A DNA stretch of 42,375 nucleotides, from the NCBI GenBank assembly GCA_036567205.1, contig DATCVA010000035.1, forward strand, positions 1 through 42,375, given 5' to 3'. The stretch comes from Eoetvoesiella sp. (GTDB lineage: Bacteria; Pseudomonadota; Gammaproteobacteria; Burkholderiales; Burkholderiaceae_B). A program made the translations under genes and the position numbers. The notes under the pieces are model-generated. The model did no database searches. It was not told the origin of the DNA and saw nothing but the letters and a program-made list of their open reading frames with translations. Position 1 is the stretch's first letter, and every line of letters starts with the position of its first letter. Below are positions 729 to 33,763 of this stretch, piece by piece.

Positions 729-1898
729 ATGAACTTTCAATCCAAATTACCCAACGTCGGCACCACCATCTTTACAGTAATGAGCCAGTTGGCAACCGAA
801 CACAGTGCAATCAATCTAGGCCAGGGCTTTCCCGACTTCAATCCTGCCCCCGAATTGCTCGATTATGTAACGCAAGCCATGCGCGACGGACATAATCAAT
901 ATCCGCCCATGCCAGGCATAGGCTTGCTACGCGAAGAAATAGCCCGGAAGGTTAAAAACTTGTATGGGCACTCTTATGATGCCGACAGTGAAATTACGGT
1001 CACCAGCGGCGCTACAGAGGCCTTAATGGCCAGCATCATGGCCTTCGTTAAGGCGGGCGACGAAGTAATCGTGATTGAGCCGTTTTACGATCTTTACATT
1101 CCCGCTATCAAGCTGGCGGGCGGCGTACCCGTTATTGTCCCTATGCGCGCACCCACTGAAAGCCAGCCGCTTTATCAAATCGATTGGCAACAAGTACGTG
1201 CGGCAATCACAATAAAAACCCGGCTGATTATGTTGAATTATCCACATAACCCGACCGGAGTCGTACTGGAAGAAAGCGACCTGGACGCCCTGGAGTCTAT
1301 TGTGAACGACACCGGTGTCATGCTGTTATCCGACGAGGTATACGAACACATTATTTTTGATGGCAAAAAACACCATAGCCTGGCCGGGCGTGCAGCCCTG
1401 GCCGCTCGTTCCATTGTTATATCGTCATTCGGAAAAACGTATCACACCACCGGCTGGAAAGTAGGTTATTTCTGCGCTCCCAAATCTATTTCCGCCGAAA
1501 TTCGTAAAGTGCACCAGTTTATGGTTTTTACGGTTAGTTCGCCCATGCAATTCGCGCTGGCTCAATACCTTAAAAATCCCAAGCCTTATCTTGAACTAGC
1601 AGCTTTCTACCAGACCAAACGAGATCGTCTTAGCGAAGCACTAAAACGAACCCGCTTTAAACCTTTGCCAAGCCAGGGAACGTTTTTTTTACTCGCCGAC
1701 TACAGCGCTATTTCAAATAAACCGGAAGCCGATTTCGCGCACTGGCTAACCGTTGAGCATGGCGTCACGGTGATACCCATGTCGGCATTTTATGAAGACC
1801 CCACAGCTAAGGAATCCAACCACAACCTTGTCCGGTTCTGCTTTGCCAAACAGGACCATACCCTGGACAGCGCAGCCGAAAAACTGTCCAGGATCTAA
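729..1898 (+). CDS. ybdL: PLP-dependent class I aminotransferase, YbdL/methionine aminotransferase-like
   Basis: 389 aa. SKLPNVGTTIFTVMSQLA..INLGQGFPDF at the N-terminus and the PLP-lysine motif SSFGKTYHTTGWKVGY closely resemble E. coli YbdL as I remember it. Confidence 0.85.
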   Translation: MNFQSKLPNVGTTIFTVMSQLATEHSAINLGQGFPDFNPAPELLDYVTQAMRDGHNQYPPMPGIGLLREEIARKVKNLYGHSYDADSEITVTSGATEALMASIMAFVKAGDEVIVIEPFYDLYIPAIKLAGGVPVIVPMRAPTESQPLYQIDWQQVRAAITIKTRLIMLNYPHNPTGVVLEESDLDALESIVNDTGVMLLSDEVYEHIIFDGKKHHSLAGRAALAARSIVISSFGKTYHTTGWKVGYFCAPKSISAEIRKVHQFMVFTVSSPMQFALAQYLKNPKPYLELAAFYQTKRDRLSEALKRTRFKPLPSQGTFFLLADYSAISNKPEADFAHWLTVEHGVTVIPMSAFYEDPTAKESNHNLVRFCFAKQDHTLDSAAEKLSRI

Positions 1899-2044: not shown

Positions 2045-3583
2045 TCAAACTACATCGCCCGGGCTTGTTAACGACAGTGCCTTCTTCTTTTTAAAATAGC
2101 GAAGCAGGGGAGGAACGACAACGATAAAGATCGATACGATCCACAGGCCTTTGGAAATATTGCTGTCAAATAACACGTGAAGCTCGCCGTTAGTGATAGA
2201 TAACGCACGGCGCAGATTCTGCTCCATCATATCGCCCAGCACCACCCCCAGCACCAGAGGCGCCATCGGTAAACCTCCTTTACGCATAAAGTATCCGATA
2301 GCGCCTATGCCCACTACCATCATCAAATCGAATGTCCCCGCATTGATTGCATACACGCCAATGTAGCTGATACACAAAATACCCGGAACCATAAGCCAAC
2401 CCGGTACAGAAAGAACTTTGGAAAAAATCCTGACCATGGGCACGTTCATGCAAAACAACATAATGTTGGCAATGAAGATCGATGCAACCAAGCCCCAAAC
2501 CAATTCCGGCTTGGTATCGAACAGAACTGGCCCTGGTGTAATGTTGTAAAGCGTCAGCGCACCCATCATGACTGCGGTGGTACCGGACCCTGGCACGCCT
2601 AGTGTCAGCATCGGTATGAATGAGCCAATTGCCGACGACGTAGCCGCTGCTTCCGGGGCAACCAGGCCGCGCAAATCACCCTTGCCGAACTTCGCATCAG
2701 GATCTTTCGCTTCACATATCCGTTTTTCATTCGAATAGGCTACTGCGGCTGCAACACTGGCGCCGGCGCCGGGCAATACACCCACACCGAACCCAAGAAA
2801 CGCGCTTCGAACAACGCTCCACCAGGTGTATGCCATTTCCTTTAGATTGAAAATTTTACGTCCGCTCGACTCGACCTCGACAGTTTGTCCCGCCATGACT
2901 TTTTCAAGCATTTCAAGCATTTCAGCAACAGCGAAAAGGGCGATCACGACAATCACGAACTCAATACCATCGAACAAGTGCACAGAATCGAATGTATAGC
3001 GATAAACGCCAGAGTTGGAGTCTACCCCTACGGTTGCAATAGCAAGGCCTATCATGGACGCCAAAACGCCTTTAACGGGCTCTTTACCCAACAAGCTGGT
3101 CAAGCACACAAACGCAAAAATCATCAAAACAAAATATTCGGCCGGACCGAACGCCAAAGCCCATTTAGCCAAAAGAGGGGCCAAAACAATAATCCCGAAT
3201 ACCGCGACTACCGACCCGCAAAAGGCAGACCAGGCAGACAATGACAATGCAACATTGGCCAAACCTTGCCGTGCCAAAGGATAGCCATCAAGCGTAGTCA
3301 TAATGGCGCTGGCTTCGCCAGGTACATTAATCAAGATGGATGTAATCCGCCCACCGTATTCGGCCCCCACATACACTGCTGCCAGCAAAATAAGTGCTGT
3401 CTCGGGCGGCAAGTTCATGGCAAACGCAATGGGAATTAACATGGCCACGCCATTAATCGGCCCCAGGCCTGGCAAAACTCCCACCATTGTGCCGATAAAC
3501 GAGCCAATTGCAGCAACCAACAGATTTTGCCAGGATGCAGCGACGTTAAACCCGATTTCCAGGTGGCTTAGAATTTCATTCAT
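2045..3583 (-). CDS. tctA: Tripartite tricarboxylate transporter, large permease TctA
   Basis: 512-aa polytopic membrane protein with TctA-family appearance. It overlaps tctB by 4 nt and is last in a tctC-tctB-tctA array. Confidence 0.9.
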   Translation of the reverse strand: MNEILSHLEIGFNVAASWQNLLVAAIGSFIGTMVGVLPGLGPINGVAMLIPIAFAMNLPPETALILLAAVYVGAEYGGRITSILINVPGEASAIMTTLDGYPLARQGLANVALSLSAWSAFCGSVVAVFGIIVLAPLLAKWALAFGPAEYFVLMIFAFVCLTSLLGKEPVKGVLASMIGLAIATVGVDSNSGVYRYTFDSVHLFDGIEFVIVVIALFAVAEMLEMLEKVMAGQTVEVESSGRKIFNLKEMAYTWWSVVRSAFLGFGVGVLPGAGASVAAAVAYSNEKRICEAKDPDAKFGKGDLRGLVAPEAAATSSAIGSFIPMLTLGVPGSGTTAVMMGALTLYNITPGPVLFDTKPELVWGLVASIFIANIMLFCMNVPMVRIFSKVLSVPGWLMVPGILCISYIGVYAINAGTFDLMMVVGIGAIGYFMRKGGLPMAPLVLGVVLGDMMEQNLRRALSITNGELHVLFDSNISKGLWIVSIFIVVVPPLLRYFKKKKALSLTSPGDVV

Positions 3584-4017
3584 ACGAATTCTCTCAAGAT
3601 ACCAAGTGGCAACACCACATCTAAAATCCGGTCAAACAATATGAAGAAGAACACGCTCATTACCAGACCGCCGATCAACACCTTTATCCACTTGCCACTA
3701 AAGAGCCGGCCAACAAACACGGTCATCAACGTCGTAGCAACAATAAATCCCAACATTTGAAAGAAATAGGCATAGGCGGCACAAACACCCACCATTACCG
3801 TAATCCGCCCCGTAGCACCAGGCGGATTGGGTTCCGACGGATTACCACCTTTATAAGTAAGCCAAAGACCGCACATAGCAATAATGGCCGCGATCAACAA
3901 AGGAAACGCACGCGGTCCAACCGGCTCGTAAGAAAATGGGGCTTCGATATCCCAGCCCAACCACACCATTAGGGCGGCAAAAACAAGCGCGCAAACGCCT
4001 AATATTCGATCATTCAT
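3580..4017 (-). CDS. tctB: Tripartite tricarboxylate transporter, small membrane subunit TctB
   Basis: About 145-aa hydrophobic protein between tctC and tctA. The ATG at 4017 (MNDRILGVCALVF) is preferred over the upstream GTG at 4065. Confidence 0.8.
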   Translation of the reverse strand: MNDRILGVCALVFAALMVWLGWDIEAPFSYEPVGPRAFPLLIAAIIAMCGLWLTYKGGNPSEPNPPGATGRITVMVGVCAAYAYFFQMLGFIVATTLMTVFVGRLFSGKWIKVLIGGLVMSVFFFILFDRILDVVLPLGILREFV

Positions 4018-4198
4018 AATATGAAGTTCCGACCAAGAGTCGTGATACAAAAGGAATCCGCGCACAGTCTTTGATATTAAGTTCTTGGTTCAAAACTAAA
4101 ACCGTGTTGCGCGGATTGGCTGGATTAGCAAGAAAGCTGATGATTGTTTCAATAACAAACGCGACAGCGCTTGTCAGTTAACCCAGCCTTAATACAGC

Positions 4199-5197
4199 TT
4201 ATTTTTTCATTAAGCCAAATGAATCAGCCAGTTCTTTGTAGAACTCAACGCGTTCTTTGACATAAGTGTCCAGCTCGGCGCCCGTTTTATTGAACGGGAA
4301 CAACCCTTGCTGTTTCTGTAATGCTGCGAACTTAGGGCTGGCCTGGGTGTTGTCAAATGCCTTGACCCACCAGTTGTATTGCTCGTCAGTGACTTTGGGC
4401 CCTACATAGAAACCACGGATAATAGGCCAGTCAATGTTATATCCTTGTTCTTTAGCAGTTGGAATATCGGCAAGCTTGCCAGGCAAGCGTTCGGTATTAA
4501 ACACAGCTAGCAAGCGAATCGGTGCGCCACCTTCAAGCATGGTGAACGCTTCCGCGGCGTCGCCCATATAAGCCTGAATATGTCCACCGCGTAACGCGGT
4601 TATAGCCTCGCCGCCGCCCTCAAATGCCACGAAACGCATTCTTTTGTAATCGACTCCGGCCGCTTTAGCAGTTAGTGCTGCTTTCATCCAGTCTTGACTG
4701 CCCACCGTGCCACCAGCGGCTAAAACGATTTTGCTCGGATTTTCCTTAAAAGCATCCATTAGCTCTTTAAGACTTTTATAGGGAGAGTCGTCGCGTACGA
4801 TAACAACGCCATAGTCAGCGCCAATGCCCGACAGCCAGCGCACGTCATTCACGTTGTATTTGCCAAATTTTCCCTGGGCCAGGTTCAATAACGAGCCACC
4901 CGAAAAAGCAATAATGGCGCCAGGTTCAGCTGGTTTTTGTGCAACAACATGGTTATAAGCTACAGCGCCAATACCACCGGGCATATAAACAATACGCATC
5001 GGCTCTTTAAGCTGCCCGGCTTGTTTCAAGGCTTCTTGCGCCAATCGGCATGTAAGATCAAAACCACCGCCGGGTTGGGCTGGAGCAATACATTCCGGAC
5101 GGCGGGGTTCTTCGGCAGCGGCGGTCGACATCGCCATCAAGGAACTTGCACTAAGCAAAACTCCGGCTATCAAGCCAGGAACAAGGGATTTTTTCAT
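4199..5197 (-). CDS. tctC: Tripartite tricarboxylate transporter periplasmic receptor TctC (Bug family)
   Basis: Signal peptide MKKSLVPGLIAGVLLSASSLMAMSTAAA, a Bug/TctC-like body, and GGAG 6 nt upstream of the ATG at 5197. The ORF track extends to 5275. Confidence 0.88.
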   Translation of the reverse strand: MKKSLVPGLIAGVLLSASSLMAMSTAAAEEPRRPECIAPAQPGGGFDLTCRLAQEALKQAGQLKEPMRIVYMPGGIGAVAYNHVVAQKPAEPGAIIAFSGGSLLNLAQGKFGKYNVNDVRWLSGIGADYGVVIVRDDSPYKSLKELMDAFKENPSKIVLAAGGTVGSQDWMKAALTAKAAGVDYKRMRFVAFEGGGEAITALRGGHIQAYMGDAAEAFTMLEGGAPIRLLAVFNTERLPGKLADIPTAKEQGYNIDWPIIRGFYVGPKVTDEQYNWWVKAFDNTQASPKFAALQKQQGLFPFNKTGAELDTYVKERVEFYKELADSFGLMKK

Positions 5198-5316
5198 TGT
5201 CATCTCCGATAAGAACATATACAGGTTGATACCCGTCTTTTTATTGCCTAAGCTTGGCAAGTTCATACCGTACAAAAATTAGCTTTCCAAACCCTTTCAA
5301 CTTGCTTGTTTTTTAT

Positions 5317-6756
5317 TTAAACCCTTGCTTTATCAGCAAAATCTAGGGTAAATACCAGTGTAGCCCGGCACCCTTTTTGATCATTCAGCGTTTCCAGGGT
5401 GAACTCTCCTTGATGCTGCTTCATAATGGTTCTGACAATCGCCAGCCCCAAGCCCGCTCCTGTTGTATTTTTGCCTGCTGCCCCTCGTCGAAACCGGATG
5501 CCCGCTTTTTCAATGTCGGCAGGAGTCATGCCCGGACCATTATCTTCAACAATCAAATAAGCATTTGTGCCTTGCTTGTATGACCTCAACGTAACAATAC
5601 CGCCTACAGGCGTATAACGAATTGCGTTATCCACCAAATTAATAATGGCCTCGCGTATTAACCATTCGAAGCCGTCTATGCGAACAGGCAAGTCCGGACC
5701 TTCAAAACCAAAATCCAGTTGCTTGGTACGTGCAACCGGATACATATCCTTCAATATGCCGTGTGCCAGCGCCGTTAAATCTATTTTCTCCAGACTTTGA
5801 GTCATTTCCAATGGAGAGCCTTCCCTGGCTCGAGCCAGGGACAACATTTGATTGGTAGTGCGAACCGCCCGATCCAACCCCTCGCGCATTGCCTGCAACG
5901 CCGAGTGAATTTCCTCAGGATCGTCTTCCCGCAAGGCATAACCCAATTGGGCTCGCAATACTGAAAAAGGCGTACGCAATTGGTGAGAGGCATCATTCAA
6001 AAACTGGCGTTGCATTCGTGCCTGTTTTGCATAACGCGCCATATGGCTGTTGACGGCAGCCACCAAAGGCTGAACTTCAGATGGTATGTCTTTATCCTCT
6101 ACCGGCCGCAAATCGTCAAAACGCCGTCCCGCAAGGTCGTTATGTAAACGCGTTAGCGGCCGGACAGCAAAAAGTACGCCAAGCACAACGATCAAAATAA
6201 CCAGTCCCACTACAACGACGTCACGCTCTATGGAACGCAGCAACATCGAATGAATAAATTGTTCACGCGTATCGAAATCTTCGGCCACTTGAACAATTAC
6301 ACGACCGCCAATCTCTTTGTTCAAAGGAGGATTCATGGGCCGCGCCAGTGCAGCAATACGAATGGATTGCCCAAGATAAATCGCGTTATAAAACTGCGGT
6401 ACCCCTGAAATTAGCGGAGCGCTTGGCAATGGAAGTTCCTGATTGCCAATTTCAGCCAGTCCGTCTTCAGTCAAGACCCGAAAATAAACACGTTCATTGG
6501 CCGTCAGTTCAAAAAACTCAAGCAGAAGATACGGTTGTTCAAGTGATAAACCACCGCTGGCTGTGGAAATATTATGGTCAATCGAGCGCAGCGCTCCGGC
6601 CAATGAACGATCGTAGGCAATATTGACTTGTGTACGTAGCTGATGGTTTGAAATCCATAAAGCAATTACCAAAATAACAATAAGGGCCGGGATTATGGAC
6701 CACAATAAGATCGATTTCAGACTGCTTGACCAAGAGTAAAAACGCCTAATTTTCAC
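5317..6756 (-). CDS. tctE: Sensor histidine kinase TctE
   Basis: 479 aa with two TM segments, H-box SHQLRTPFSVL and an ATPase domain (DNAIRYT, GLGLAIV). It overlaps tctD by 11 nt. Confidence 0.88.
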   Translation of the reverse strand: MKIRRFYSWSSSLKSILLWSIIPALIVILVIALWISNHQLRTQVNIAYDRSLAGALRSIDHNISTASGGLSLEQPYLLLEFFELTANERVYFRVLTEDGLAEIGNQELPLPSAPLISGVPQFYNAIYLGQSIRIAALARPMNPPLNKEIGGRVIVQVAEDFDTREQFIHSMLLRSIERDVVVVGLVILIVVLGVLFAVRPLTRLHNDLAGRRFDDLRPVEDKDIPSEVQPLVAAVNSHMARYAKQARMQRQFLNDASHQLRTPFSVLRAQLGYALREDDPEEIHSALQAMREGLDRAVRTTNQMLSLARAREGSPLEMTQSLEKIDLTALAHGILKDMYPVARTKQLDFGFEGPDLPVRIDGFEWLIREAIINLVDNAIRYTPVGGIVTLRSYKQGTNAYLIVEDNGPGMTPADIEKAGIRFRRGAAGKNTTGAGLGLAIVRTIMKQHQGEFTLETLNDQKGCRATLVFTLDFADKARV

Positions 6757-7423
6757 TCATTGGCTCCAAACAATAGCCCATCCCCCTTAAGGTAACAATT
6801 TGGGTGCCGGTATCGACCAGTTTTTTACGAAGTCGATGCACAAGGACTTCGATGGCTTCAAGGTTTATATCTTTATCGTCAGAGTTGATTCGGTCCAGAA
6901 TTTGCTGCTTGGCAATCGGCTCGCCGCTTTTCTGGATAAGTACTTTTAAAACGGCATATTCTTTTGGGGATAAAGCCAATGGCTGCCCATCAACCAAAAA
7001 CCGTTGGGCAGCTGTGTCCAGGCTAAGAGCTCCCAAGGCTAATCGCGGATGTTCACGTCCACGGCTACGTCGTATTAATGCAATTAATCGTGCTTCCAGC
7101 TCTTCGACAACAAACGGTTTAGCAACAAAATCATCAGCCCCTTCATGTAAAGAATCGACTCGTTCCGATAATGAATCGCGAGCAGTTAAAACTAGTACCG
7201 GCGTTCGGTCATCACGTGCCCGTAGCCGGGTTAAAAACGTGTGTCCATTCATTCCAGGTAATCCTAAGTCCAAAATAACAGCATCGAATTCTTCAACTGC
7301 CAGTCGTCGTTCGGCAAGTTCGGCATCATCGGCCCAATCAACAATAAATCCACCATGACGTGCCAAGCTTCTTGATAGCCAATGGGCAAGTTCAATTTCA
7401 TCTTCAATCAGCAGTATACGCAT
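6746..7423 (-). CDS. tctD: OmpR-family response regulator TctD
   Basis: 225 aa. Receiver domain (MRILLIEDE...DLGLPGMNG) plus a winged-helix C-terminus (VHRLRKKL..TLRGMGY), directly upstream of tctE. Confidence 0.9.
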   Translation of the reverse strand: MRILLIEDEIELAHWLSRSLARHGGFIVDWADDAELAERRLAVEEFDAVILDLGLPGMNGHTFLTRLRARDDRTPVLVLTARDSLSERVDSLHEGADDFVAKPFVVEELEARLIALIRRSRGREHPRLALGALSLDTAAQRFLVDGQPLALSPKEYAVLKVLIQKSGEPIAKQQILDRINSDDKDINLEAIEVLVHRLRKKLVDTGTQIVTLRGMGYCLEPMSEN

Positions 7424-7515
7424 AGAAGGAGGAGCCTTGTTTGGGTGACTAAGAAGGAAATGTTTTATCTTTTCTTTCTTATCTTTATATATAAAGACTA
7501 ATAATAATGGGTGTC

Positions 7516-7524
7516 TGTGGATAA
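7516..7524 (-). promoter_or_regulatory. DnaA box, perfect 9/9 (TGTGGATAA on the + strand)
   Basis: Exact match to the reverse complement of TTATCCACA, immediately downstream of the AT-rich tract at about 7460-7510. Confidence 0.6.
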
Positions 7525-7695
7525 CTGGGACAACCTTTAATTACCTAATCATTTCATAGGATTAGGCAACTTTTTAAAACATCATAAGTTCTGTTTTTTT
7601 GAAGGATGAATTCTGGACAACTTTTAGGTTTGTTCTGAAAGTAGTAGTTGTACTTTATCAATCCACAAGCTGTGCACAACCTGCTTGCTTAGTAG

Positions 7696-7704
7696 TTATC
7701 CACA
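7696..7704 (+). promoter_or_regulatory. DnaA box, perfect 9/9 (TTATCCACA)
   Basis: Exact consensus, inverted relative to the box at 7516-7524, with a start-to-start offset of 180 bp. Confidence 0.6.
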
Positions 7705-8276
7705 GGTGGAAATATTGTAACTAACTGAAAGGCTGACGCGTAAATTTATTGAAGCTTGAGTTTTGGCAGCGAGTTGCACAGCAGCGGGGCTGAATCACAC
7801 CCTGAAATCGAAAATACTTTCAAAAAAGAGTTATTAGAAATGATCGAAAAAGCACGCTAGAACCCTTTAGAAGGGCAAGGAACAGATTTTTAGCCGTGTG
7901 GCGGCAGGATGGGCTTGGTTTCGACTTCAAAAGGTCGGAAATCGCTTGAATCGTTCTGCTGCGGTTTTGTTATGACTACTCGGAAAAAATTCTGTAATTT
8001 TCTTTTATGGGGTAGATAAGGAAAGTTTTGAACGAGTTTTTACGTTGCATGTATCTACAGATTCGTAAAGTTTGAGCCTGGCATCTATCTTGAATACAGG
8101 CGTTTGCTTCCTGTTCAATTTGTTTAACGCTTCCCTAGCAATTTTCTTGTAAGAAAAATTAATTTCGAGCTACTTGAATCGTTCAACAGAAGTATGGGCC
8201 AAGTTTGTTTTTAGCCGTTACTGCTTTATGTTGTTTATCTTTATTATATATATAAAGACTAATAATAATGGGTGTC

Positions 8277-8285
8277 TGTGGATAA
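8277..8285 (-). promoter_or_regulatory. DnaA box, perfect 9/9 (TGTGGATAA on the + strand)
   Basis: Exact match, preceded by the AT-rich tract at 8235-8270. Confidence 0.6.
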
Positions 8286-8456
8286 GTGGCATAAGTACCA
8301 ATAGTTCAATCTTTTCATAAACTTAAAACAGTTTTTTTGCCGGCATAAACTCTGTTTTTAAGAAGGATGGATTCTGTACAACTTTTAGCTATGGAACAAA
8401 CCTCTGACTTGTCCTTGTTTGTTCCACAGCCTGTGCACAATGCCGCTTCATAGTAG

Positions 8457-8465
8457 TTATCCACC
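8457..8465 (+). promoter_or_regulatory. DnaA box, 8/9 (TTATCCACC)
   Basis: One mismatch at the last position, 180 bp from the box at 8277. Confidence 0.45.
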
Positions 8466-8472
8466 GCTCAAT

Positions 8473-8521
8473 AACGTTAAAAAGCCACCCTATACCAATA
8501 GAAAGGATGGCTTTTAACGTT
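8473..8521 (-). terminator. Hairpin/terminator downstream of the metallophosphoesterase gene
   Basis: Long inverted repeat AACGTTAAAAAGCCA (8473-8487) / TGGCTTTTAACGTT (8508-8521). On the minus strand a GC core stem is followed by TTTTT. Confidence 0.55.
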
Positions 8522-8546
8522 TACAGGTATCCAAAACAGCAGGGTT

Positions 8547-9596
8547 TCAGCAGGTTTTTACTATTTCCCCGGAGTCGAAAACCAGCTGGTTTTCTGGCCA
8601 TTGCAGCGCAGCCAACTTAAATCGCGAGGCTTCGGAACGGCTAACTTTGCGATCACGCCAGCGCGCACCGACTGAAAAATCCACACAAAAGACATTGCGA
8701 TGTTTGCCATGCCATGCGGTGGGTTCAATGTTTTGAAATAATTGCGTATAGCGCGGCATGTTTTCTTTTTTCTGGGGGGTAAACATTCGCCAGTAATGGC
8801 CGATGATGACAGGAATTGCATCGTCGTAATCGTCCCACCAATTTGTGCGGTCTGAAAAACGCCATCGATTGCCTGCAAAGAACGGAGTAGTGGCTTGTTG
8901 CTCTACCCCGGAGGTCAATACTTTCAAGGGGTTCACCATCTGTTGCATGGCTTCGTATTCGGCAATGGCGTGAAGAAAAGGAGGTGGATTTTTTTCATCT
9001 TCGAGCTCGTCGGCCCAACGCTGTTTTTCAGCCAGATAGCGCTGATATAGTCCGGAAGCTTCAGCGGAAGACTGAGCAATGTAGTCCCATACTTTGTATT
9101 GTTCGACAATGGTGCCCACTGGTATGGCGCTTACAGCGGCAATGGCTGCCGGAGTCCAGGCCGCATGTACTACCCGGATATCGTCACGAACCAAAGCAAC
9201 GGGTTGCCGGCGTAAAAAGTCCCTGATGCTTTTGCGTTCAGTGGGTGGGGTACGTCGAAAGGGCGCGTAGTTTTTAAGGTCTTGTTCCAGACGTTCGTCA
9301 AAAAACCATCCTGATCCGTCTTTAATGTCGTCGATCAGTAAGTTAAGTTCATGATTGCCTAAAATCGTATAGGCGTTGCCTTGTTCAACTAGTGATTGGA
9401 CAAGGCGAACAACGCCATGGCTATCGGGTCCCCGGTCCACCAGGTCGCCCACAAAAACCAGTTTTCGATTTTGTGGATGTCGACCGTTGCTGTCGTATTC
9501 CAGATGCCTTAATAAGGAATGCAAAGCGGCTAATTCGCCATGGATATCGCCAATAATATCGAGCGGGTTGTCGGGAAGGGGTTTGACTAAATGCAT
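8547..9596 (-). CDS. PPP-family metallophosphoesterase (ApaH/PrpA-like Ser/Thr phosphatase or diadenosine tetraphosphatase family) with a large internal insertion
   Basis: Motifs GDIHG, GDLVDRGPDS and GNHE, plus a distal IIGHYW. The ATG at 9596 (MHLVKPL) is preferred over the TTG at 9626. Confidence 0.8.
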   Translation of the reverse strand: MHLVKPLPDNPLDIIGDIHGELAALHSLLRHLEYDSNGRHPQNRKLVFVGDLVDRGPDSHGVVRLVQSLVEQGNAYTILGNHELNLLIDDIKDGSGWFFDERLEQDLKNYAPFRRTPPTERKSIRDFLRRQPVALVRDDIRVVHAAWTPAAIAAVSAIPVGTIVEQYKVWDYIAQSSAEASGLYQRYLAEKQRWADELEDEKNPPPFLHAIAEYEAMQQMVNPLKVLTSGVEQQATTPFFAGNRWRFSDRTNWWDDYDDAIPVIIGHYWRMFTPQKKENMPRYTQLFQNIEPTAWHGKHRNVFCVDFSVGARWRDRKVSRSEASRFKLAALQWPENQLVFDSGEIVKTC

Positions 9597-9832
9597 GTGC
9601 TTTATAAAAACGTAAACAGTGGGCAATTAACTTTGGAGTGCAACCGACTCCGTGCCTGGTTTTCCTTTATACCAAAGTATTTGTTACATGCTCCGGGTTT
9701 TACATTAGCGGTTATTAATTTATTAGCGTTATATCTGTTCGGCGGCGAGGCGCATTGTCATAACCGCTTCGGTTGGCAGCCTTGTGGTTTGTGGATTTAA
9801 TTATTTAAACACTGCGTGCTGTTAGTCGTGTG

Positions 9833-11217: not shown

Positions 11218-11850
11218 TCAATGTTTATGAGTGTGGTCATGGTCATGGGAATGGTTTTGATCGCCATGCTCGTGTTCATGGTGGTTATGGTTGTGTTCGC
11301 CGTGTGCATGACTATGCCCGGATTTGATCTGGGGAGCTCGTGCTGCATAAGCGGCTTGCGCCAGTGCATAGTCTTCATCGAATGTTTCGTCATGGCCATG
11401 TTTGTGTCCGCCGCCATACGCGCCAGCGTCCGGTTCAAACGGCTGGTTAACGCGTTCAACGTTAACGTTGCCCAGGCGTTGCAGCATATCGACTAATACC
11501 GGGTCGTATTCCAGATGCAAGTAGCTGGGGCCAACCTCTACAAGTACGTGCCGGTTGCCCAGGTGGTAGGCGGCGCGGGTTAATTGCTGGGGTGAGTTTG
11601 CCGTTACCTTGAGCACGGACTCAAGGGCGGCTTCCACCAGGACAAACTGCCCGTCTTCGGCCACCAGTAAATCGCCATGACGCAAGACAGTTCCCTGATT
11701 CAAGACCAGTCCGATTTCCTGGCCATCATCGAGCGTAACTTTTTGACGACTGCGGCGGCGTGATTCGAAAGGCAACACAGCTTTTGGAGCATTGCGAGTA
11801 AGGGCTTTGGCAACGCTGACGCCGTGTAAATGTTTTTTAATAATACGCAT
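11218..11850 (-). CDS. ureE: Urease accessory nickel chaperone UreE with a His-rich tail
   Basis: 210 aa. UreE-like N-domain with a C-terminal HSHAHGEHNHNHHEHEHGDQNHSHDHDHTHKH tail. Confidence 0.9.
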   Translation of the reverse strand: MRIIKKHLHGVSVAKALTRNAPKAVLPFESRRRSRQKVTLDDGQEIGLVLNQGTVLRHGDLLVAEDGQFVLVEAALESVLKVTANSPQQLTRAAYHLGNRHVLVEVGPSYLHLEYDPVLVDMLQRLGNVNVERVNQPFEPDAGAYGGGHKHGHDETFDEDYALAQAAYAARAPQIKSGHSHAHGEHNHNHHEHEHGDQNHSHDHDHTHKH

Positions 11851-11852
11851 AA

Positions 11853-13568
11853 TCAGAATAAAAAGTAGCGTTGCGCCATAGGCAGGATTTTGGCGGGTTC
11901 ACATGTCAACAACTTACCGTCAGCCATAACCTGATAGGTTTGCGGGTCGACAGTAATGTGCGGTAGCCAATTATTAAGCACCATGTCTTTTTTGCCTATG
12001 GTGCGGCAACCGTGAATGGTTTCAAGGGTTTTGATCAGACCCAGTTCGTGTACTTTCGGGTTGTCCATGGCGGCCTGGGACAAAAACGTAAGCGACGTTT
12101 TCAGGGCCCTGCCGAAACCGGCATACATGGGACGCGAATGAACCGGTTGGGGCGTGGCAATTGACGCGCCTGGGTCGCCGACCGTAGCCGAGGCAATCAT
12201 TCCGCCTTTAAGGACCATGCTGGCTTTTATGCCAAAAAAAGCGGGCTTCCAGATGACGATATCAGCCAGCTTACCGACTTCTATCGACCCTACTTTATGA
12301 GCAATGCCGTGCGTGATGGCCGGGTTAATGGTGTATTTGGCAATATAGCGCTTAATGCGATGATTATCGGCCCGTGCGCTGTCGCCTTCAAGGGCGCCTT
12401 GTTGCGCTTTCATTTTATCGGCGGTTTGCCAGGTACGCAGCACGACTTCACCTACACGTCCCATGGCCTGGGAGTCGGAACTCATAATTGAAAATGCGCC
12501 CAGATCGTGCAGAATATCTTCAGCCGCAATGGTTTCACGGCGGATGCGGCTTTCAGCAAAAGCAAGATCTTCGGCGATGGACGAGTCCAGATGGTGGCAA
12601 ACCATCAGCATATCCAGGTGCTCGTCGATAGTGTTAGTAGTAAAAGGCATGGTCGGATTGGTGGAAGCGGGCAGAACATTGGGCATACCGGCCGCCCGGA
12701 TAATGTCTGGGGCGTGGCCGCCTCCTGCTCCTTCCGTATGAAACGAATGGATAGTGCGGCCTTTAAATGCCTTGAAGGTGTCTTCGACGAAACCCGATTC
12801 ATTTAGAGTGTCGCTGTGAATAGCGACCTGGATGTCCATCTCGTCGGCAACGCTCAAGCACGAGTCGATGGCGGCAGGTGTAGCGCCCCAGTCTTCATGC
12901 AACTTTAGACCAATGGCTCCTGCAGCTACTTGCTCGATAAGCGGGCCGTGAACGCTGACGTTACCTTTACCCAGTAAACCGATATTTATGGGAAAGGCGT
13001 CTAATGCCGCAAGCATGGAATGGATGTGCCACGGACCTGAGGTGCAGGTTGTTGCGAGCGAACCGGTAGCCGGACCGGTGCCGCCGCCGATCATGGTGGT
13101 TGTGCCGGTAGCCAGGGCTTCTTCGATTTGATCCGGGCAAATAAAGTGCACGTGCGTATCGATTGCGCCAGCAGTGATGATCAGGCCTTCACCTGCAATG
13201 ACTTCGGTAGCCGGGCCCACCACAATAGTGACGCCGGGCTGGATATCTGGATTTCCAGCTTTGCCGATGCCTGAAATCAAGCCGCTTTTAATACCGATGT
13301 CGGCTTTAATGATGCCGGTGACGGCATCAATAATAACGGCATTGGTAATAACGGTATCTACGCAGTCGGCGCTTAAACGCTGACTTTGGCCCATGCCATC
13401 GCGGATCACTTTACCACCGCCAAATTTCACTTCCTCACCGTAGATGGTGTGATCTTTTTCTATTTCCGCCAACAACTGAGTATCGGCAAGCCGGATGCGG
13501 TCGCCAATACCATTAATGCAGGTAGGCCCGAACATTTCTACATAGGCACGCCGTGAAATTGCAACCAT
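11853..13568 (-). CDS. ureC: Urease alpha subunit UreC
   Basis: 571 aa with the hallmark motifs MVCHHLD and [12 protein letters not shown]. The ATG overlaps the ureB stop by 1 nt. Confidence 0.97.
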
Positions 13569-13873
13569 TAGAGAGCTCCCATAATGTCGCCGTTAAAGCC
13601 GAAAACCTTGCGCTCGCCACTTAATTCAACGAGTTCAACCGTACGTTTCTGGCCGGGCTCGAAACGCACGGCAGTGCCTGCCGCAATATTCAGGCGAAAG
13701 CCTCGCGCGGCTTTTCGATCGAAATCCAGCGCCTTGTTTGTTTCGGCAAAATGGTAATGAGAGCCGACTTGTATGGGCCTGTCGCCCGTATTGATAACAC
13801 TGACTACGCATGTGGTCCGGTCGACGTTGAGTTCGATTTCGCCGGGCTCAGTCAGAATTTCGCCTGGTATCAT
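13568..13873 (-). CDS. ureB: Urease beta subunit UreB
   Basis: 101 aa: [16 protein letters not shown]...[10 protein letters not shown]. Confidence 0.95.
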
Positions 13874-13907
13874 TTTTGTGTCCTGAAAACGAATAGGTTA
13901 CGAGAGT

Positions 13908-14513
13908 TCATGCGGTTAAAAGGGCAACACCGTACGCGGCAATACCTGCGCCGGCAAGACGTGTAAGCCATACATTGCGCTGCTTTAATGTGAAGCCAGC
14001 CGTCAGTCCGATCAAATGCAAGGCAAATGTACTTAGCATGAAGCCGGCGATGAACGCTGCCGCGCTGCCGCCTAGGGGCAACTCAGAGCCGTGGGCCATG
14101 CCATGGAACAAAGCGAAGAAGCCGACCAACGCGGCGCCGGCCCAATTAGGTAATGAAACCCGGCTGGCAACCAAAAGACCCAATACAAGCAACGAAGCCA
14201 TGATAATGGGTTCAATCGCTGGCAAAGCAATACCGGCCATGCCCATGAGTGCACCGATCAATAGCAGGCACAAGAAGCTGATTGGGGTCCAGACCGCAGC
14301 GCGAACATTGTCATGGGTGAGGGCGCTCCAGAGACCGACGGCTAGCATGGCTAAAAGATGATCGACCCCGGTCAAAGGGTGTGCCAGGCCAGACAAAAAC
14401 AGATTGTCGGCAACTTCATGGCCCGGATGTGCAAGTGCGGCGGTGGAAACAAGACTCAGCCCAAGTGCATACGCCATAAATACACCGACGGATTTAAAAG
14501 AGGAAATTGACAT
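13908..14513 (-). CDS. ureJ: HupE/UreJ-family nickel transporter
   Basis: 201-aa membrane protein with a signal peptide followed by AHPGH and multiple TM helices. It sits between ureA and ureB, as in Bordetella urease loci. Confidence 0.85.
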   Translation of the reverse strand: MSISSFKSVGVFMAYALGLSLVSTAALAHPGHEVADNLFLSGLAHPLTGVDHLLAMLAVGLWSALTHDNVRAAVWTPISFLCLLLIGALMGMAGIALPAIEPIIMASLLVLGLLVASRVSLPNWAGAALVGFFALFHGMAHGSELPLGGSAAAFIAGFMLSTFALHLIGLTAGFTLKQRNVWLTRLAGAGIAAYGVALLTA

Positions 14514-14698
14514 AGTTAGAGTCCAGAAATAAGCAGGTTATGCGAAAAAAACTTAAATGAGCGTTCGGCTTATAAAGCAACAGGCCTGATTCCATTTTTA
14601 TATCAAACATGCATTTTTTCGGCTTCGCTGCCTTACAAAAGTAAGGTCTGCGCTTCGCCTTCGCGTTCATGCCTGATCTGGAAACGGAATGACATGTT

Positions 14699-15001
14699 TC
14701 AAGTAATTGGGTGGTGCACGGTAACCAGCTTGGTACCGTCTGGAAAGGTAGCTTCGACTTGAATATCAGAGATCATTTCGGGAATCCCGTCCATGACATC
14801 GTCACGCGTAAGAATTGTGGTGCCGTAATGCATAAGTTCGGCCACCGTACGACCGTCGCGAGCACCCTCAAGCAGGGCCGCAGTGATTAGCGCAACGGAT
14901 TCCGGATAGTTCAATTTGACACCACGGGCCTTGCGCCGTTCGGCCAACAAACCAGCCGTAAATATCAACAACTTGTCCTTTTCGCGGGGAGTTAATTCCA
15001 T
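14699..15001 (-). CDS. ureA: Urease gamma subunit UreA
   Basis: 100 aa: [34 protein letters not shown]. Confidence 0.96.
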
Positions 15002-15125
15002 TGATTTATTCCTTTCTATGAATCACGTTTATTCAAATTTTTATACAGTAAAAATACTGTCAATTAAGCTGAATAACAATCGCTGAGCGGCTTAAAATAT
15101 GAGCCGGTATTTTTGACGACTTTAG

Positions 15126-15156
15126 GTATTTGGAATACTTCAGGTATTCCAAATAC
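15126..15156 (-). other. Perfect 13-bp inverted repeat straddling the ureD stop codon
   Basis: GTATTTGGAATAC (15126-15138), loop TTCAG, GTATTCCAAATAC (15144-15156). The ureD stop (15140-15142) lies in the loop. Confidence 0.7.
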
Positions 15157-15994
15157 GCAAATAAGTGCCTTCTTTTTTTTGCACTAAGGGGCGCAACAGA
15201 GTCCAGAGCTCAATTAGCAGCCGCTTTACATCCTCAACATGCTGACCCAATACCCGGATAAGGCTGAGGCCTTGCTCATTTGCCTGAGGCATATAGGTAA
15301 GGCCTGCACGCACAGTGTTATCCCAAGGCAGCGTTTCGGCAAGTACATCGGTTTGTTCCGAGGTAAGACCTGGTCCAAATGCCCATAAAGTGGCAAGGAC
15401 GGGAAAACCGTCCAGTCCGTTGACGCTGGTGCGCAGCGGGCTTGTTGCACACAGTTCGCCGACATCGAGCCACAAGGGGCGTTGATTAAGAGTCAGCTGC
15501 GTGTTCAGCAGTACCAGACCTTCGTCCCAATGATTTTTCTTGGTGATGCTGCCTAACTGGGTAATTTCCCAACCTATATTGCTTGCGCCGGTGTGCATAT
15601 TTATCTGCGTTGTAATCGCAGCGTTGGCTTGCTCAAAAAAAATATTCTCGTGAGGCAGCCAGTCTAGTCGCGCGTTAGCGGCTAGATTAACAATGACGGT
15701 CTGGGCCGAACGACGGCCATTGGCTTTGTACCAGCGCGTTGCGCCAGGTGTAGTCAGCAATGCATGGGCATCTTGCTTAACATCAATATTTATCTGTAGG
15801 ACATCGCCGCCTGCGATACCGGACGGGGGGTGCAAAATAGTGACATGACAAACTTCGGCACCTTCGGGATAAAGTGCTTTTTGTACAAGCAAAGGCCCTT
15901 CATGTTTGCGCCTGGCCAGTACGGTTTTGTTTGTTCCCTGGCGCTCGAATGAAAGTTCTAGTTTGGCATGCCAATCATTAGCGAGTGCGAACAT
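15140..15994 (-). CDS. ureD: Urease accessory protein UreD
   Basis: 284 aa, first gene of the array, with UreD-like size and sequence character. Confidence 0.85.
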   Translation of the reverse strand: MFALANDWHAKLELSFERQGTNKTVLARRKHEGPLLVQKALYPEGAEVCHVTILHPPSGIAGGDVLQINIDVKQDAHALLTTPGATRWYKANGRRSAQTVIVNLAANARLDWLPHENIFFEQANAAITTQINMHTGASNIGWEITQLGSITKKNHWDEGLVLLNTQLTLNQRPLWLDVGELCATSPLRTSVNGLDGFPVLATLWAFGPGLTSEQTDVLAETLPWDNTVRAGLTYMPQANEQGLSLIRVLGQHVEDVKRLLIELWTLLRPLVQKKEGTYLRIWNT

Positions 15995-21139: not shown

Positions 21140-21238
21140 CAAGGAGAAGCCCCCGACACTGTATAGCAACCCCTTGGGATGGCACATATTGCATCCCGCC
21201 GTTTGATTAAGAACAGAAAATTAATAGAGGAGACTTTT

Positions 21239-28334: not shown

Positions 28335-28499
28335 TGATTTCCATTCCTCAGAATATATAGGTTGTTCTTTTTGCAAAAATATAAATGGCCGCCTGGTTTA
28401 TGTTCTTGTTTGAAAGTACTCTAAAGTCTATTAATTAAGATGTCTAATATCAATTCAACTATCAATTAGGTTATATTTAGACTTAATCTAATTCCGCGG

Positions 28500-31999: not shown

Positions 32000-32134
32000 C
32001 TAAACGGCCAGGCGCTTGCGACCCTTGGCACGGCGCGCGTTAATAACGGCGCGGCCACCGCGTGTTTTCATACGGACGCGAAAACCGTGGGTACGCTTGC
32101 GGCGAGTAACGGATGTTTGGAAAGTGCGTTTCAT
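32000..32134 (-). CDS. rpmH: 50S ribosomal protein L34
   Basis: Not in the ORF track because it is under 60 aa. My manual translation gives [44 protein letters not shown] followed by a stop. Confidence 0.93.
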
Positions 32135-32137
32135 GGA

Positions 32138-32146
32138 TTATCCAAA
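32138..32146 (+). promoter_or_regulatory. DnaA box, 8/9 (TTATCCAAA), in the rpmH-dnaA spacer
   Basis: One mismatch to TTATCCACA, adjacent to the rpmH start. Confidence 0.35.
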
Positions 32147-32284
32147 TAAAAGAGCTACTAGAAACGCGCCTTGAAATAGGTGTTCCTAGTGTTAGAAATT
32201 CTTGTAAAGCCCACTATTTCATCAAACTATTCCCGATTAGTCAAATGGTTAGCAGTAATACCAAGCGTTATTACTATCTACCCT

Positions 32285-33761: not shown

Positions 33762-33763
33762 CC

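Follow-up and report, generated by a model that had tools for sequence, protein, structure and literature searches.

The textbook rule is that a bacterial chromosome has one origin of replication. Exceptions are described as rare: Pseudomonas aeruginosa has two functional origins, its relatives are predicted to have dual origins, and BCG carries a recent duplication (PMC4403523; PMC2448323; Weigel, 2025). The P. aeruginosa pair, oriC1 and oriC2, has predicted counterparts across Pseudomonadaceae and Halomonadaceae (Yee and Smith, 1990; Jiang, 2006, both as cited in Weigel, 2025, bioRxiv 10.1101/2025.08.05.668638). On chromosome 1 of Cupriavidus metallidurans CH34, the GC-skew transition lies ~90 kb from dnaA, right after a 213-nt region with three perfect DnaA boxes (PMC2864759). 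For Pusillimonas, we found no publication naming an oriC in the literature.

The candidate considered here is an AT-rich gap in a 42,375-nucleotide stretch of DNA (the window), read in the original prediction as a replication origin, or else as a DnaA-titrating or DnaA-reactivating locus of the datA or DARS type. Every proposed computational test that was run favoured an origin, and we put at roughly 0.85 the probability that the gap is the oriC of an Alcaligenaceae chromosome, made up of two tandem, directly repeated and diverged ~250-bp modules of the Escherichia coli type. The element is ordinary in kind, an oriC away from dnaA, and its tandem dual form is unusual and long-maintained.

An intergenic gap with two oriC-like modules

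The gap had been singled out as the largest in the window without an ORF (at least 60 aa, all frames), and it is, with 1123 bp against 319 bp for the runner-up; its GC content is 37%, versus 52% for the window. The DnaA boxes reported in it, two of sequence TGTGGATAA, one TTATCCACA and one near-perfect TTATCCACC, are all present (Table 1). Perfect boxes number five in the whole window against 0.35 expected, and three in the gap, besides the near-perfect one, against 0.009 expected (Poisson P ~1e-7, a value somewhat overstated because the two module copies are not independent). The layout described around them also holds: each TGTGGATAA follows an AT tract (86–88% A+T) across an 8-bp spacer, TGGGTGTC, and has an inverted partner exactly 180 bp further on in both pairs, which is the R1 to R4 distance, start to start, in the K-12 sequence of E. 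coli oriC, in line with the original prediction. By nearest-neighbour calculation (rather than SIDD), segments 8227–8267 (z = 4.4) and 7466–7506 (z = 4.1) rank first and second in instability among the 40-bp duplexes of the 42-kb window. What had to be revised is the count, since the four boxes, originally taken as a single origin, belong to two copies of one ~250-bp direct repeat, 761 bp apart, and thus to a tandem pair of complete modules, A and B. GATC occurs once in the whole gap and in neither module; the window has 3.5 per kb. Scans of the gap for Rfam families (gathering threshold) and for tRNAs gave no match, a consensus promoter and terminator scan of 7300–8700 found none, and a search of the window found no parS-like site even with three mismatches allowed.

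Table 1. Coordinates of the gap, its two modules and the adjoining features in the window.
Feature	Position	Strand	Details
tctD-like response regulator gene	6746–7423	-	Pfam, NCBIfam; reads away from module A DUE
Candidate origin region with two tandem oriC-like modules	7424–8546	.	ORF-free, AT-rich, intergenic
Module A, complete oriC-like unit	7452–7713	+	nhmmer score 177 against the family profile
DUE-like AT tract, module A	7461–7507	+	86% A+T; second least stable 40-bp duplex
DnaA-trio-like element, module A	7499–7515	+	TAA TAA TAA (7499–7507), T, GC-rich spacer GGGTGTC (7509–7515)
R1-type perfect DnaA box, module A	7516–7524	-	TGTGGATAA on the + strand
IHF-like site, module A	7552–7564	+	TTTCATAGGATTA; 7/9 positions of WATCAANNNNTTR
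Left array, module A	7579–7620	-	relaxed boxes in R1 orientation, 11-bp register
Right array, module A	7648–7678	+	R4-orientation boxes 11 bp apart
R4-type perfect DnaA box, module A	7696–7704	+	exactly 180 bp from R1
Spacer between modules	7714–8218	.	non-coding, not conserved; without ORF of at least 60 aa, Rfam match, or promoter- or terminator-like site
Module B, second complete oriC-like unit, oriented as A	8219–8469	+	nhmmer score 171; 761 bp downstream
DUE-like AT tract, module B	8222–8268	+	88% A+T; least stable duplex of the window; TAA TAA TAA at 8260–8268
R1-type perfect DnaA box, module B	8277–8285	-	TGTGGATAA
Right-array boxes, module B	8420–8439	+	+143 TGTTCCACA, +154 CTGTGCACA
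R4-type box, module B	8457–8465	+	TTATCCACC, one mismatch; exactly 180 bp from R1
Strong hairpin and U-run just past the phosphoesterase stop codon	8473–8521	-	MFE -26.4 kcal/mol, z = -4.0
PPP-family metallophosphoesterase (MPE) gene	8547–9626	-	Pfam Metallophos; reads toward module B R4

Module architecture and a proposed initiation mechanism

In module A the elements follow one another as DUE, trios, R1, IHF-like site, left array, right array and R4. Its AT tract, whose upper strand is T-rich, holds TTATCTTT repeats at 7465 and 7479. With positions counted from R1, the left array comprises ACATCATAA at +63 and TCTGGACAA at +96, with a conserved GGATGA at about +86, and the right array comprises TTGTACTTT at +132, CAATCCACA at +143 and CTGTGCACA at +154. 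The site before the left array is an IHF-like candidate by its partial match to the IHF consensus, WATCAANNNNTTR, and it was aligned with the IHF-site region of E. coli in a MAFFT alignment that misplaced R4. The module also has 12-bp inverted ends, CTGTGGATAACT and AGTTATCCACAG. Modules A and B are ~75% identical over the repeat blocks (71–84%), 69% in a gapless comparison overall, and 63% between the boxes.

Published criteria for oriC prediction (Weigel, 2025, section 2.2.12, bioRxiv 10.1101/2025.08.05.668638) include a DUE, a reverse consensus box (TGTGNAWAA) about two helical turns past it, an array of boxes, a DUE-side gene that reads away from the origin and, optionally, DnaA trios. Both AT tracts have z > 4, and the matching tracts of relatives are likewise among their least stable segments; TGTGGATAA at 7516 and at 8277 supplies the reverse box, and each R1 follows the end of its tract by 8 bp and the centre by about 30 bp. 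The trio region reads TAT AAA GAC TAA TAA TAA, followed by the 8-bp spacer and the box, and its six NAN triplets fit the BUS rule of at least three NAN triplets and a spacer of at most 16 bp (PMC8287927). Since a DUE-like tract and trio motifs are found in both copies, the datA or DARS alternative offered in the original prediction is disfavoured for the locus as a whole, though it may apply to one of the copies.

By analogy with E. coli and Bacillus subtilis, DnaA would bind the high-affinity R1- and R4-type boxes, inverted and 180 bp apart, and ATP-DnaA would fill the 11-bp-phased weak boxes, so that a left and a right sub-complex would face each other. A bend at the IHF-like site beside R1 would place the left sub-complex on the trios (TAA-TAA-TAA) and on the T-rich strand of the neighbouring AT tract, which would melt and then take up helicase. 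Bidirectional forks firing from the gap are proposed to produce a skew flip at the gap, and dnaA-dnaN-gyrB would then be co-directional with fork travel.

Conservation, copy number and ancestry in relatives

That relatives with the same flanking genes should keep the element, a consequence drawn in the original prediction, is what we find in Pusillimonas, Pollutimonas, Paralcaligenes, Alcaligenaceae CGII-64 and ~40 metagenome contigs, and the skew flips there too. The spacing from R1 to R4 is 178–181 bp in 59 of 59 scorable modules (exactly 180 in 37), a set that includes second copies outside the search-pattern selection. Module A can be aligned gaplessly with seven other modules across R1 to R4, and these eight, from five genomes, stay free of gaps throughout the 171-bp interval between the boxes, with identities of only 50–65%, from which it follows that spacing is constrained more tightly than sequence. 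Across 57 modules a box array recurs, with conserved box-like positions at 0, +63 and +96 in R1 orientation and at +132, +143, +154 and +180 in R4 orientation, and with a mean of 2.5–2.7 mismatches at the phased weak-box positions (left array, +63 and +96) compared with 5.5 for the background. At +154, one relative (L004) has a perfect TTATCCACA and another (L001) has TTATACACA. A block ttCAa...cTT at +36 to +48, the candidate IHF site, is conserved in 57 modules, and period-3 T-R-R repeats before the GC-rich 7-mer are kept family-wide with their own sequence varying. In four relatives the matching AT tracts rank among the top three least stable segments of 20-kb loci.

Two modules occur in ~19 related loci, usually on either side of the phosphoesterase gene, and one in ~10; doubles make up roughly two thirds of the judgeable related loci, although the metagenome loci were picked by an 18-mer from the module, which biases both this ratio and the conservation of the 18-mer itself. 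Wherever flanks were recovered, the modules sit in one syntenic place (aminotransferase, module, phosphoesterase), in one orientation and in one or two copies. Here a tct operon is inserted beside the module, and elsewhere the phosphoesterase lies between or beside the copies. A closer relative (L015) has the same two-module layout and a phosphoesterase 84% identical as protein; its modules A′ and B′ align with A and B at 68–77%, and the spacers measure 505 bp in the window versus 307 bp in L015. A blastn and tblastx comparison of the inter-module spacer with all related loci, including L015, and with the rest of the window found no similarity. In 7706–8221, blastn and tblastx found no remnant of any gene, phosphoesterase included, and a derivation of this spacer from a second phosphoesterase copy that decayed after a unit duplication was therefore dropped.

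In a tree, module A groups with the RR-proximal copy of L015 and B with the MPE-proximal copy, so that A and B are not sisters, and both copies, to judge from their sequences, are kept by selection. A scheme of one ancient duplication giving clean "upstream" and "downstream" clades was rejected, since sequences of ~250 bp give a neighbour-joining tree of insufficient resolution; within a genome, paralogues resemble each other about as closely as orthologues do (63–65%). One old duplication with gene conversion, or several duplications, may each fit the tree, and the pairings in it that look reliable are only those of A with A′ and B with B′ of L015, those within L021, L031 and L042, and those within L034, L043 and L044.

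Flanking genes, GC skew and alternative locations

On the DUE side of module A the tctD-like gene reads away, and module B has the spacer and module A in that position. In relatives, the DUE-side gene reads away for copies upstream of the phosphoesterase and toward the DUE for aminotransferase-side copies. The orientation of the aminotransferase gene in single-module relatives breaks an empirical rule, that this gene reads away, said to hold for all confirmed origins. The phosphoesterase, whose N-terminus has weak similarity to ApaH, PrpE and Pnkp, is linked to the module in nearly all related loci with recovered flanks. The hairpin past its stop codon is probably an intrinsic terminator shielding module B from read-through, and was missed by the simple terminator scan because its loop presumably exceeds the limit of the scan.

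A cumulative GC-skew minimum of the complete replicon at the gap was the first check proposed; the minimum of the window falls at 7409, beside the gap. Total and third-codon GC skew turn from negative to positive exactly there, GC3 skew per gene being negative in six of the seven genes to the left and between 0.05 and 0.33 in the majority of genes to the right, out to rnpA; from dnaA rightwards the plus-strand skew falls to about 0, a point against the origin reading. Among 15 loci that extend at least 2.5 kb to either side of the module, 13 show, when oriented by it, negative skew on the DUE side and positive skew on the R4 side, and the cumulative minima of four relatives (L001–L004), at 11351–11886, fall on the module. 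A Pigmentiphaga locus (L005) has a phosphoesterase homologue and lacks the module, any perfect or one-mismatch DnaA box and such a skew switch at the gene. The switch is a local one, seen at the scale of the 42-kb window and the related loci rather than of a complete replicon.

Could the skew switch instead be an inversion breakpoint, and the repeat a mobile or selfish element with DnaA-box-like ends? The inverted module ends, a further skew change near 32 kb and the varying gene content beside the module among genomes would be in keeping with this, but the single syntenic place, fixed orientation and low copy number lead us to reject a mobile element, neither a transposase gene nor a target-site duplication turned up, the interior shows origin-like conservation of phase, and independent inversions would not make the skew flip at the module time after time, in 13 of the 15 loci drawn from several genera. 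We regard such an explanation as very improbable.

An origin elsewhere nearby deserves somewhat more attention. In relatives, the DUE side of the module has, ~3.5 kb away, mnmG-rsmG-parA-parB and a cluster of parS-like sites, and four DnaA boxes with at least five parS-like sites lie between csp and mnmG, ~2 kb from the module; the counterpart of this box cluster in the present genome lies past the left end of the window. If neither module were an origin, oriC could lie there, by mnmG and parS, or in the rpmH-dnaA spacer, and the modules would be regulatory loci of the datA or DARS type. The csp-mnmG cluster stays a candidate by skew, because the switch cannot separate sites 2 kb apart, and the perfect R1-type box at 32285 in the rpmH-dnaA spacer and the single modules in relatives that violate the gene-direction rule point the same way. 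Against this, no AT tract lies within two helical turns of the csp-proximal cluster, whose nearest unstable segment is ~135 bp off, whereas the modules hold every structural element of an origin, and we consider an origin outside them improbable.

The dnaA-dnaN-gyrB genes lie 24 kb to the right of the gap. The original prediction had argued that a dnaA-adjacent origin would have little room there, and its distances are correct, with 205 bp between rpmH and dnaA (given a dnaA start at ATG 32341) and 2 bp between dnaA and dnaN. An origin in the rpmH-dnaA spacer was rejected. This promoter-like region of 205 bp holds one perfect R1-type and one one-mismatch box, is not among the unstable segments, and coincides with a skew change in the wrong direction, from positive to about 0.

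One working module or two

Within the favoured reading of the gap as oriC, we lean toward module A as the primary origin, because its R1 and R4 are both perfect and the adjoining tctD reads away from its DUE. Module B would be a second usable origin or an auxiliary site for DnaA loading or DnaA binding. The alternatives that follow differ in whether the second copy fires.

It is close to an even chance, in our estimate, that one module fires and the other is a non-firing paralogue, serving DnaA titration or recharging in the manner of datA or DARS, aiding the loading of DnaA on its neighbour through looping, or regulating neighbouring genes. Such a division of labour is suggested by the imperfect R4 of module B, both in the window (TTATCCACC) and in its L015 orthologue (TTATGCACC), by the single copy in many genomes, and by P. 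aeruginosa, where DnaA controls the gidAB-parAB operon by binding in the oriCII region (PMC13438810). It is suggested too by degradation of the aminotransferase-side copy in one clade (L018, L034, L043 and L044), in which that copy scores far lower, has TGTTGATAA as R1, and matches the profile only from position ~62–71, without the conserved DUE part. Yet here both copies keep a least-stable AT tract, trios, a perfect R1, phased weak boxes and the 180-bp spacing; a pure titration site has no evident need of a DUE or helical phasing, and two perfect or near-perfect boxes per module amount to a small titration capacity.

That both modules are working origins, and that the clade of Pusillimonas, Pollutimonas, Paralcaligenes and relatives kept the tandem pair through speciation as lineages lost or degraded either copy, is a more tentative proposal, possible but on present evidence rather unlikely.

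Implications

The locus appears to be a new case, in which a short origin module has been tandemly duplicated and kept at about 25–37% divergence with exact internal spacing. For annotation, it would place the origin in a genome group where dnaA does not adjoin oriC. Relatives with A only, B only, both, or one decayed copy amount to a natural experiment on which origin elements are required, and duplication followed by alternate loss offers a route by which origins move relative to their neighbour genes. If both modules work, the group would document origin turnover by duplication and divergence, and would provide a natural pair of paralogous oriCs less than 1–3 kb apart, competing or cooperating for DnaA; if only one copy fires, the value would be mostly one of annotation.

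Comparison with known systems

The closest likeness is to E. coli oriC (minimal 245 bp, between mnmG/gidA and mioC), which shares the order DUE, R1 (TGTGGATAA), IHF region, weak boxes in the R1 direction, weak boxes in the R4 direction at 11-bp phase, and R4 (TTATCCACA), with R1 and R4 inverted, 180 bp apart and with opposed box arrays between them. There, too, the DUE-side gene reads away and the R4-side gene toward the origin, mnmG having the position held here by the tctD-like gene, and the origin lies tens of kb from a dnaA transcribed away from it. The differences are that the flanks here are tctD and the phosphoesterase rather than mnmG and mioC, that the left weak boxes are at +63 and +96 rather than +55 to +88, that a likely terminator stands on the R4 side, and that the unit is doubled. 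The modules, moreover, have no GATC, and no GATCTnTTnTTTT 13-mers were seen in them, so that sequestration of the Dam/SeqA type is not expected. Gapless identity to the E. coli interior is 26–37%, about chance for the composition, and given that MAFFT with E. coli oriC misplaced R4, only a shared architecture is claimed.

E. coli datA, DARS1 and DARS2 are likewise non-coding and lie away from dnaA, each combining clustered DnaA boxes with an IHF site. DARS is built around the closely set boxes I–III, and neither datA nor DARS is known to contain an unwinding element or trios or to lie at a skew switch. The modules differ in having a DUE-like tract and in that their boxes extend over 190 bp, and thus fall outside a class defined by a box cluster with an IHF site, no DUE and a position off the skew switch.

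The 213-nt region of C. metallidurans CH34, also of the Burkholderiales, resembles one module by its description, though it is described as a single region. Bipartite origins, as in B. subtilis and Helicobacter pylori, also have two DnaA-box clusters ~0.5–2 kb apart, separated by dnaA there and by the phosphoesterase in most relatives here (PMC4403523), but theirs combine one DUE with dissimilar parts, whereas here two ~75%-identical modules each have a DUE-like tract.

With oriC1 and oriC2 of Pseudomonas the locus shares two complete oriC-like regions per chromosome, each with DUE, trios, R1 and IHF site, in an arrangement inherited through speciation, with repeated decay or loss of one copy in different lineages. 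The Pseudomonas regions, however, lie at rpmH-dnaA and mnmG, 5–30 kb apart, with unlike right halves, and are not recent duplicates, whereas those described here are tandem copies, paralogous over their full length and 0.3–2.9 kb apart across loci, at one locus, which is not rpmH-dnaA and does not directly adjoin mnmG. Natural tandem duplication with two oriC copies on one chromosome is known from DU1 of Mycobacterium bovis BCG Pasteur (PMC2448323). DU1 is a recent duplication of 29.7 kb in the BCG Pasteur vaccine strain (PMC2448323), whereas the unit here is ~250 bp long and about 25–37% diverged, and the tandem pair predates the split from L015 and is shared across genera.

A tandem pair of origin-like modules between tctD and MPE

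Between the genes for a TctD-like response regulator and a calcineurin-type metallophosphoesterase (MPE) lies a gap of 1123 bp without any ORF of 60 aa or more (its longest has 49 aa), the longest such stretch in the window (the runner-up measures 319 bp), with a G+C content of 37% vs 52% for the window. Perfect TTATCCACA DnaA boxes number five in the whole window against 0.35 expected, and three in the gap against 0.009 expected (20,000 first-order simulations). The four DnaA-type 9-mers from which the original prediction read the gap as a replication origin are real and lie exactly where it had put them, but they form part of two direct copies of one unit, which had gone unnoticed. These copies, modules A and B, share one orientation, lie 761 bp apart and in register, and have repeat blocks 71-84% identical (about 75%), with a gapless identity of 69% for the full-length module and of 63% for the part enclosed by the boxes. 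Each runs from a T-rich AT tract (the DUE-like unwinding tract) through TAA TAA TAA, T plus GGGTGTC, and TGTGGATAA (R1) to a conserved TTTCAnnnnnTTA block and a conserved GGATGA...CTGnACAACTTTT block, then to (T/A)TCCACA, two bases and CTGTGCACA, and ends in TAGTAGTTATCCAC(A/C). No 40-bp duplexes in the whole window are less stable than the AT tracts adjoining R1 of B and A; the equivalents of these tracts rank first to third in the 20-kb loci of four relatives. The 505-bp spacer between A and B holds no ORF, Rfam match, or promoter-like or terminator-like site, and resembles no other fetched sequence. Transcription from MPE is probably prevented from entering module B by a strong hairpin and U-run that follow the stop codon of the gene.

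Elsewhere in the window, the fifth perfect box lies 6 kb from the modules, within a methionine-aminotransferase-like gene. Right of the urease cluster, mnmE, yidC, rnpA and rpmH are on the minus strand, and the dnaA, dnaN and gyrB genes that come after them are on the plus strand. The 42 kb contain four periplasmic receptor genes of the TctC/Bug family; large Bug-family expansions are typical of Bordetella-like Alcaligenaceae. Rfam RF02514, the 5' ureB sRNA known from Helicobacter, matches with 94.5 bits on the strand opposite the 5' part of the urease alpha-subunit gene, and this match may simply be conserved urease coding sequence.

Positions of features in the window, and offsets from the R1 start in 57 aligned modules
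Feature	Position	Strand or orientation	Remarks
Methionine-aminotransferase-like gene	729-1898		
Fifth perfect TTATCCACA	1238-1246	plus	
TctC/Bug-family receptor genes	4199-5275, 21179-22237, 27348-28376, 38783-39763		
tctD-like response regulator gene	6746-7423	minus	flanks gap; tctE and tctCBA follow
Gap	7424-8546		
Module A	about 7452-7713		
Module B	about 8219-8469		
Hairpin and U-run	8473-8521		
MPE gene	8547-9626	minus	flanks gap; then urease cluster
Urease alpha-subunit gene	11853-13568	minus	
RF02514 match	13118-13406	plus	
rpmH-dnaA spacer	32136-32340		box-like TTATCCAAA at 32138
R1-type TGTGGATAA in spacer	32285-32293		perfect; 48 bp upstream of likely dnaA ATG
R1 box	offset 0	R1	
ttCAa...cTT block	+36 to +48		7-8/9 positions of the IHF consensus WATCAANNNNTTR
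Relaxed boxes	+63, +96	R1	11-bp register; conserved GGATGA about +86
Boxes 11 bp apart	+132, +143, +154	R4	
R4 box	+180	R4	

Internal anatomy

The R1-R4 spacing is 178-181 bp in all 59 modules in which both boxes are recognisable (exactly 180 bp in 37/59), and eight modules from five genomes align without gaps over the 171 bp that separate the boxes, where they are 50-65% identical. The +154 site reads CTGTGCACA in the window, but CGII-64 has a perfect TTATCCACA there and Pusillimonas has TTATACACA; this variation among genomes supports its candidacy as a true DnaA site. Upstream of R1, a GC-rich 7-mer is kept across the family, with a sequence that varies in copies not selected by pattern (GGAACCC, GGAGCCC, GGGAGGT and others), and is preceded by period-3 T-R-R repeats (for example TAA TAA TAA, TGA TGA, TGG TAG TAA); the region matches the box, spacer and DnaA-trio layout of the basal unwinding system (PMC8287927).

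Conservation among relatives

A search with the MPE protein against one-genome-per-species contigs returned matches 69-74% identical in four Alcaligenaceae (Pusillimonas sp., Pollutimonas bauzanensis, Paralcaligenes ureilyticus and CGII-64) and a 52% identical homologue in Pigmentiphaga. The original prediction looked to relatives with the same flanking genes to keep the region, and these four close ones do (4/4), with a module of about 70% identity just downstream of MPE, perfect inverted boxes exactly 180 bp apart, and cumulative skew minima on the module (11351-11886 in their loci). At the Pigmentiphaga locus, no perfect or 1-mismatch DnaA box, no module and no such skew switch at the MPE homologue was found.

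A metagenome scan with the 18-mer ATGGGTGTCTGTGGATAA, common to all eight modules, gave 53 loci, about 10 of them chance hits, and an nhmmer profile built from gapless modules recovered all copies, including second copies without the 18-mer. All loci with flanks share the order aminotransferase, module, MPE and (in some) a further module, in a single orientation throughout. Counts are biased by the search pattern and redundant contigs: about 19 loci have two modules, mostly on either side of MPE and 1.0-2.9 kb apart (in two, about 1 kb separates the copies and a recognisable MPE is absent), with both on the same side of MPE in the window and in L015, a closer-relative metagenome contig; a single module occurs in about 10 distinct loci with sufficient flank, usually the aminotransferase-side copy, L025 being the sole single-module case with the copy upstream of MPE.

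MPE itself, a PPP-family protein whose N-terminus has weak similarity to Ap4A hydrolases of the ApaH/PrpE type and to the Pnkp phosphatase, shows close linkage to the modules in the majority of related loci with recovered flanks (L001-L061), and lies exactly between them in most two-module genomes. Compared with Pusillimonas, Pollutimonas, Paralcaligenes and CGII-64, the window carries an insertion of tctDE-tctCBA (2045-7423) that separates the aminotransferase gene from the modules, so that tctD, transcribed away from the origin, adjoins the DUE of module A; L015 shares this flank, and in L022 and L058 a tctC-like gene occupies the equivalent place.

Skew and the probable location of the origin

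Cumulative GC skew, proposed for the complete replicon as a check on the original prediction, has its minimum in the window at 7409, by the gap, a local result within 42 kb. Third-codon-position (GC3) skew, computed per gene and expressed on the plus strand, is -0.26 to -0.03 left of the gap, with one exception (+0.08), and +0.03 to +0.33 from MPE to rnpA on its right, except in the Rieske gene (-0.01), independently of gene strand, and this switch is the signature of diverging replication forks. Among the 15 loci that extend at least 2.5 kb to either side, 13 likewise show negative skew on the DUE flank and positive skew on the R4 flank. The explanation with the best support makes the gap the chromosomal origin, in the form of two complete modules in tandem; the origin as such is an ordinary element and was correctly spotted. 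An inversion breakpoint or a mobile repeat is rejected in view of synteny, copy number and the recurring skew flip.

From dnaA rightwards (32000-42375), plus-strand skew, total and third-codon, is about 0 or slightly negative (gyrB GC3 skew, -0.23), and GC3 climbs to 0.64-0.66 right of 35 kb; despite the low skew, the genes here (dnaA, dnaN, gyrB, a tctC paralogue and prpD) lie on the plus strand, the expected leading strand. The drop could stem from codon bias, from a foreign island or from a recent rearrangement.

That the true origin lies elsewhere, both copies being regulatory, is unlikely, although other sites carry DnaA boxes. On the DUE side, Pollutimonas and CGII-64, which have a second module upstream of MPE, present an aminotransferase gene, csp, a four-DnaA-box cluster, parS-like sites and mnmG-rsmG-parA-parB, which is an origin-proximal neighbourhood, but no AT tract adjoins the box cluster; by analogy, the cluster could act as a datA-like site or as a regulatory site at the gidA promoter, DnaA-linked gidA-promoter regulation having been reported for P. 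aeruginosa oriCII (PMC13438810). Its four boxes, in one orientation, directly follow the csp terminator, and at least five parS-like sites (TGTTTCACGTGGAACA) lie beyond, reaching mnmG-rsmG-parA-parB (these features are at 13851-15200 in the related locus L002 and at 14248-14393 in L004, from CGII-64); the window, which ends just short of the equivalent csp-mnmG region, contains no parS-like site. The rpmH-dnaA spacer has only one or two boxes, ordinary stability and the wrong skew direction, and looks like an autoregulated dnaA promoter; the true dnaA start is likely ATG 32341 (MKDFWQTC...), the mechanical ORF start, GTG 32286, being too far upstream.

Maintenance and decay of the two copies

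The L015 contig, with an MPE that shares 84% identity with that of the window, has the identical layout of tctD, A', spacer, B' and MPE. Its modules align with their counterparts at 68-73% (A vs A') and 73-77% (B vs B'), and its 307-bp spacer shows no similarity to the 505-bp spacer of the window. Since a neighbour-joining tree groups A with A' and B with B', the duplication is older than the window/L015 split, and both copies have been under constraint from then on. The tree fits either one old duplication with gene conversion or several independent duplications, and cannot decide between them.

A serious possibility is that a single copy fires while its partner serves as an auxiliary site in some DnaA-related role. 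Decay of one copy does happen, as seen in the imperfect R4 of B (TTATCCACC in the window, TTATGCACC in L015) and in a clade (L018, L034, L043, L044) whose aminotransferase-side copy lacks the conserved DUE part and has TGTTGATAA as R1. Module A is our first choice as the active origin, because R1 and R4 are both perfect in it and the tctD gene next to its DUE reads away from it; Weigel (2025) reports this orientation of the DUE-side gene for all confirmed origins.

Initiation at the proposed tandem origin would follow the E. coli/B. subtilis mechanism, from which we infer binding, opening and firing alike: DnaA would anchor at R1 and R4, ATP-DnaA would fill the phased weak sites, and an IHF-type bend would carry the left sub-complex onto the trios and the T-rich DUE strand, leading to duplex opening and then helicase loading.

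Comparison with known origins

In the annotated oriC of E. coli K-12, TGTGGATAA (R1) and TTATCCACA (R4) are 180 bp apart start to start, as in A and B, the DUE-side gene (mnmG there, tctD here) is transcribed away from the origin, and the R4-side gene (mioC there, MPE here) toward it; in E. coli it is standard for oriC to lie on the mnmG side and away from dnaA. Yet interior identity between the modules and E. coli oriC is at chance level (26-37%), so that what is shared is architecture and not demonstrable sequence homology, and since A and B have no GATC, unlike the Dam/SeqA-controlled E. coli origin, such control is not expected in them. At the skew switch of Cupriavidus, 90 kb from dnaA, lies a 213-nt region that contains three perfect boxes (PMC2864759). 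No paper on oriC in Pusillimonas was found in open-access text, and a DoriC entry or subscription paper is possible. Two functional origins on one chromosome are cited for P. aeruginosa in Weigel (2025), and dual origins are predicted for Pseudomonadaceae and Halomonadaceae (Weigel, 2025). Such Pseudomonas-type pairs are, however, two different loci 5-30 kb apart and not mutual duplicates, as the window's modules are; bipartite origins have one DUE, whereas each module here has a DUE-like tract; and the BCG DU1 duplication is recent (PMC2448323). The novel part is a diverged, phase-conserved, clade-wide tandem duplication, which merits experimental follow-up.
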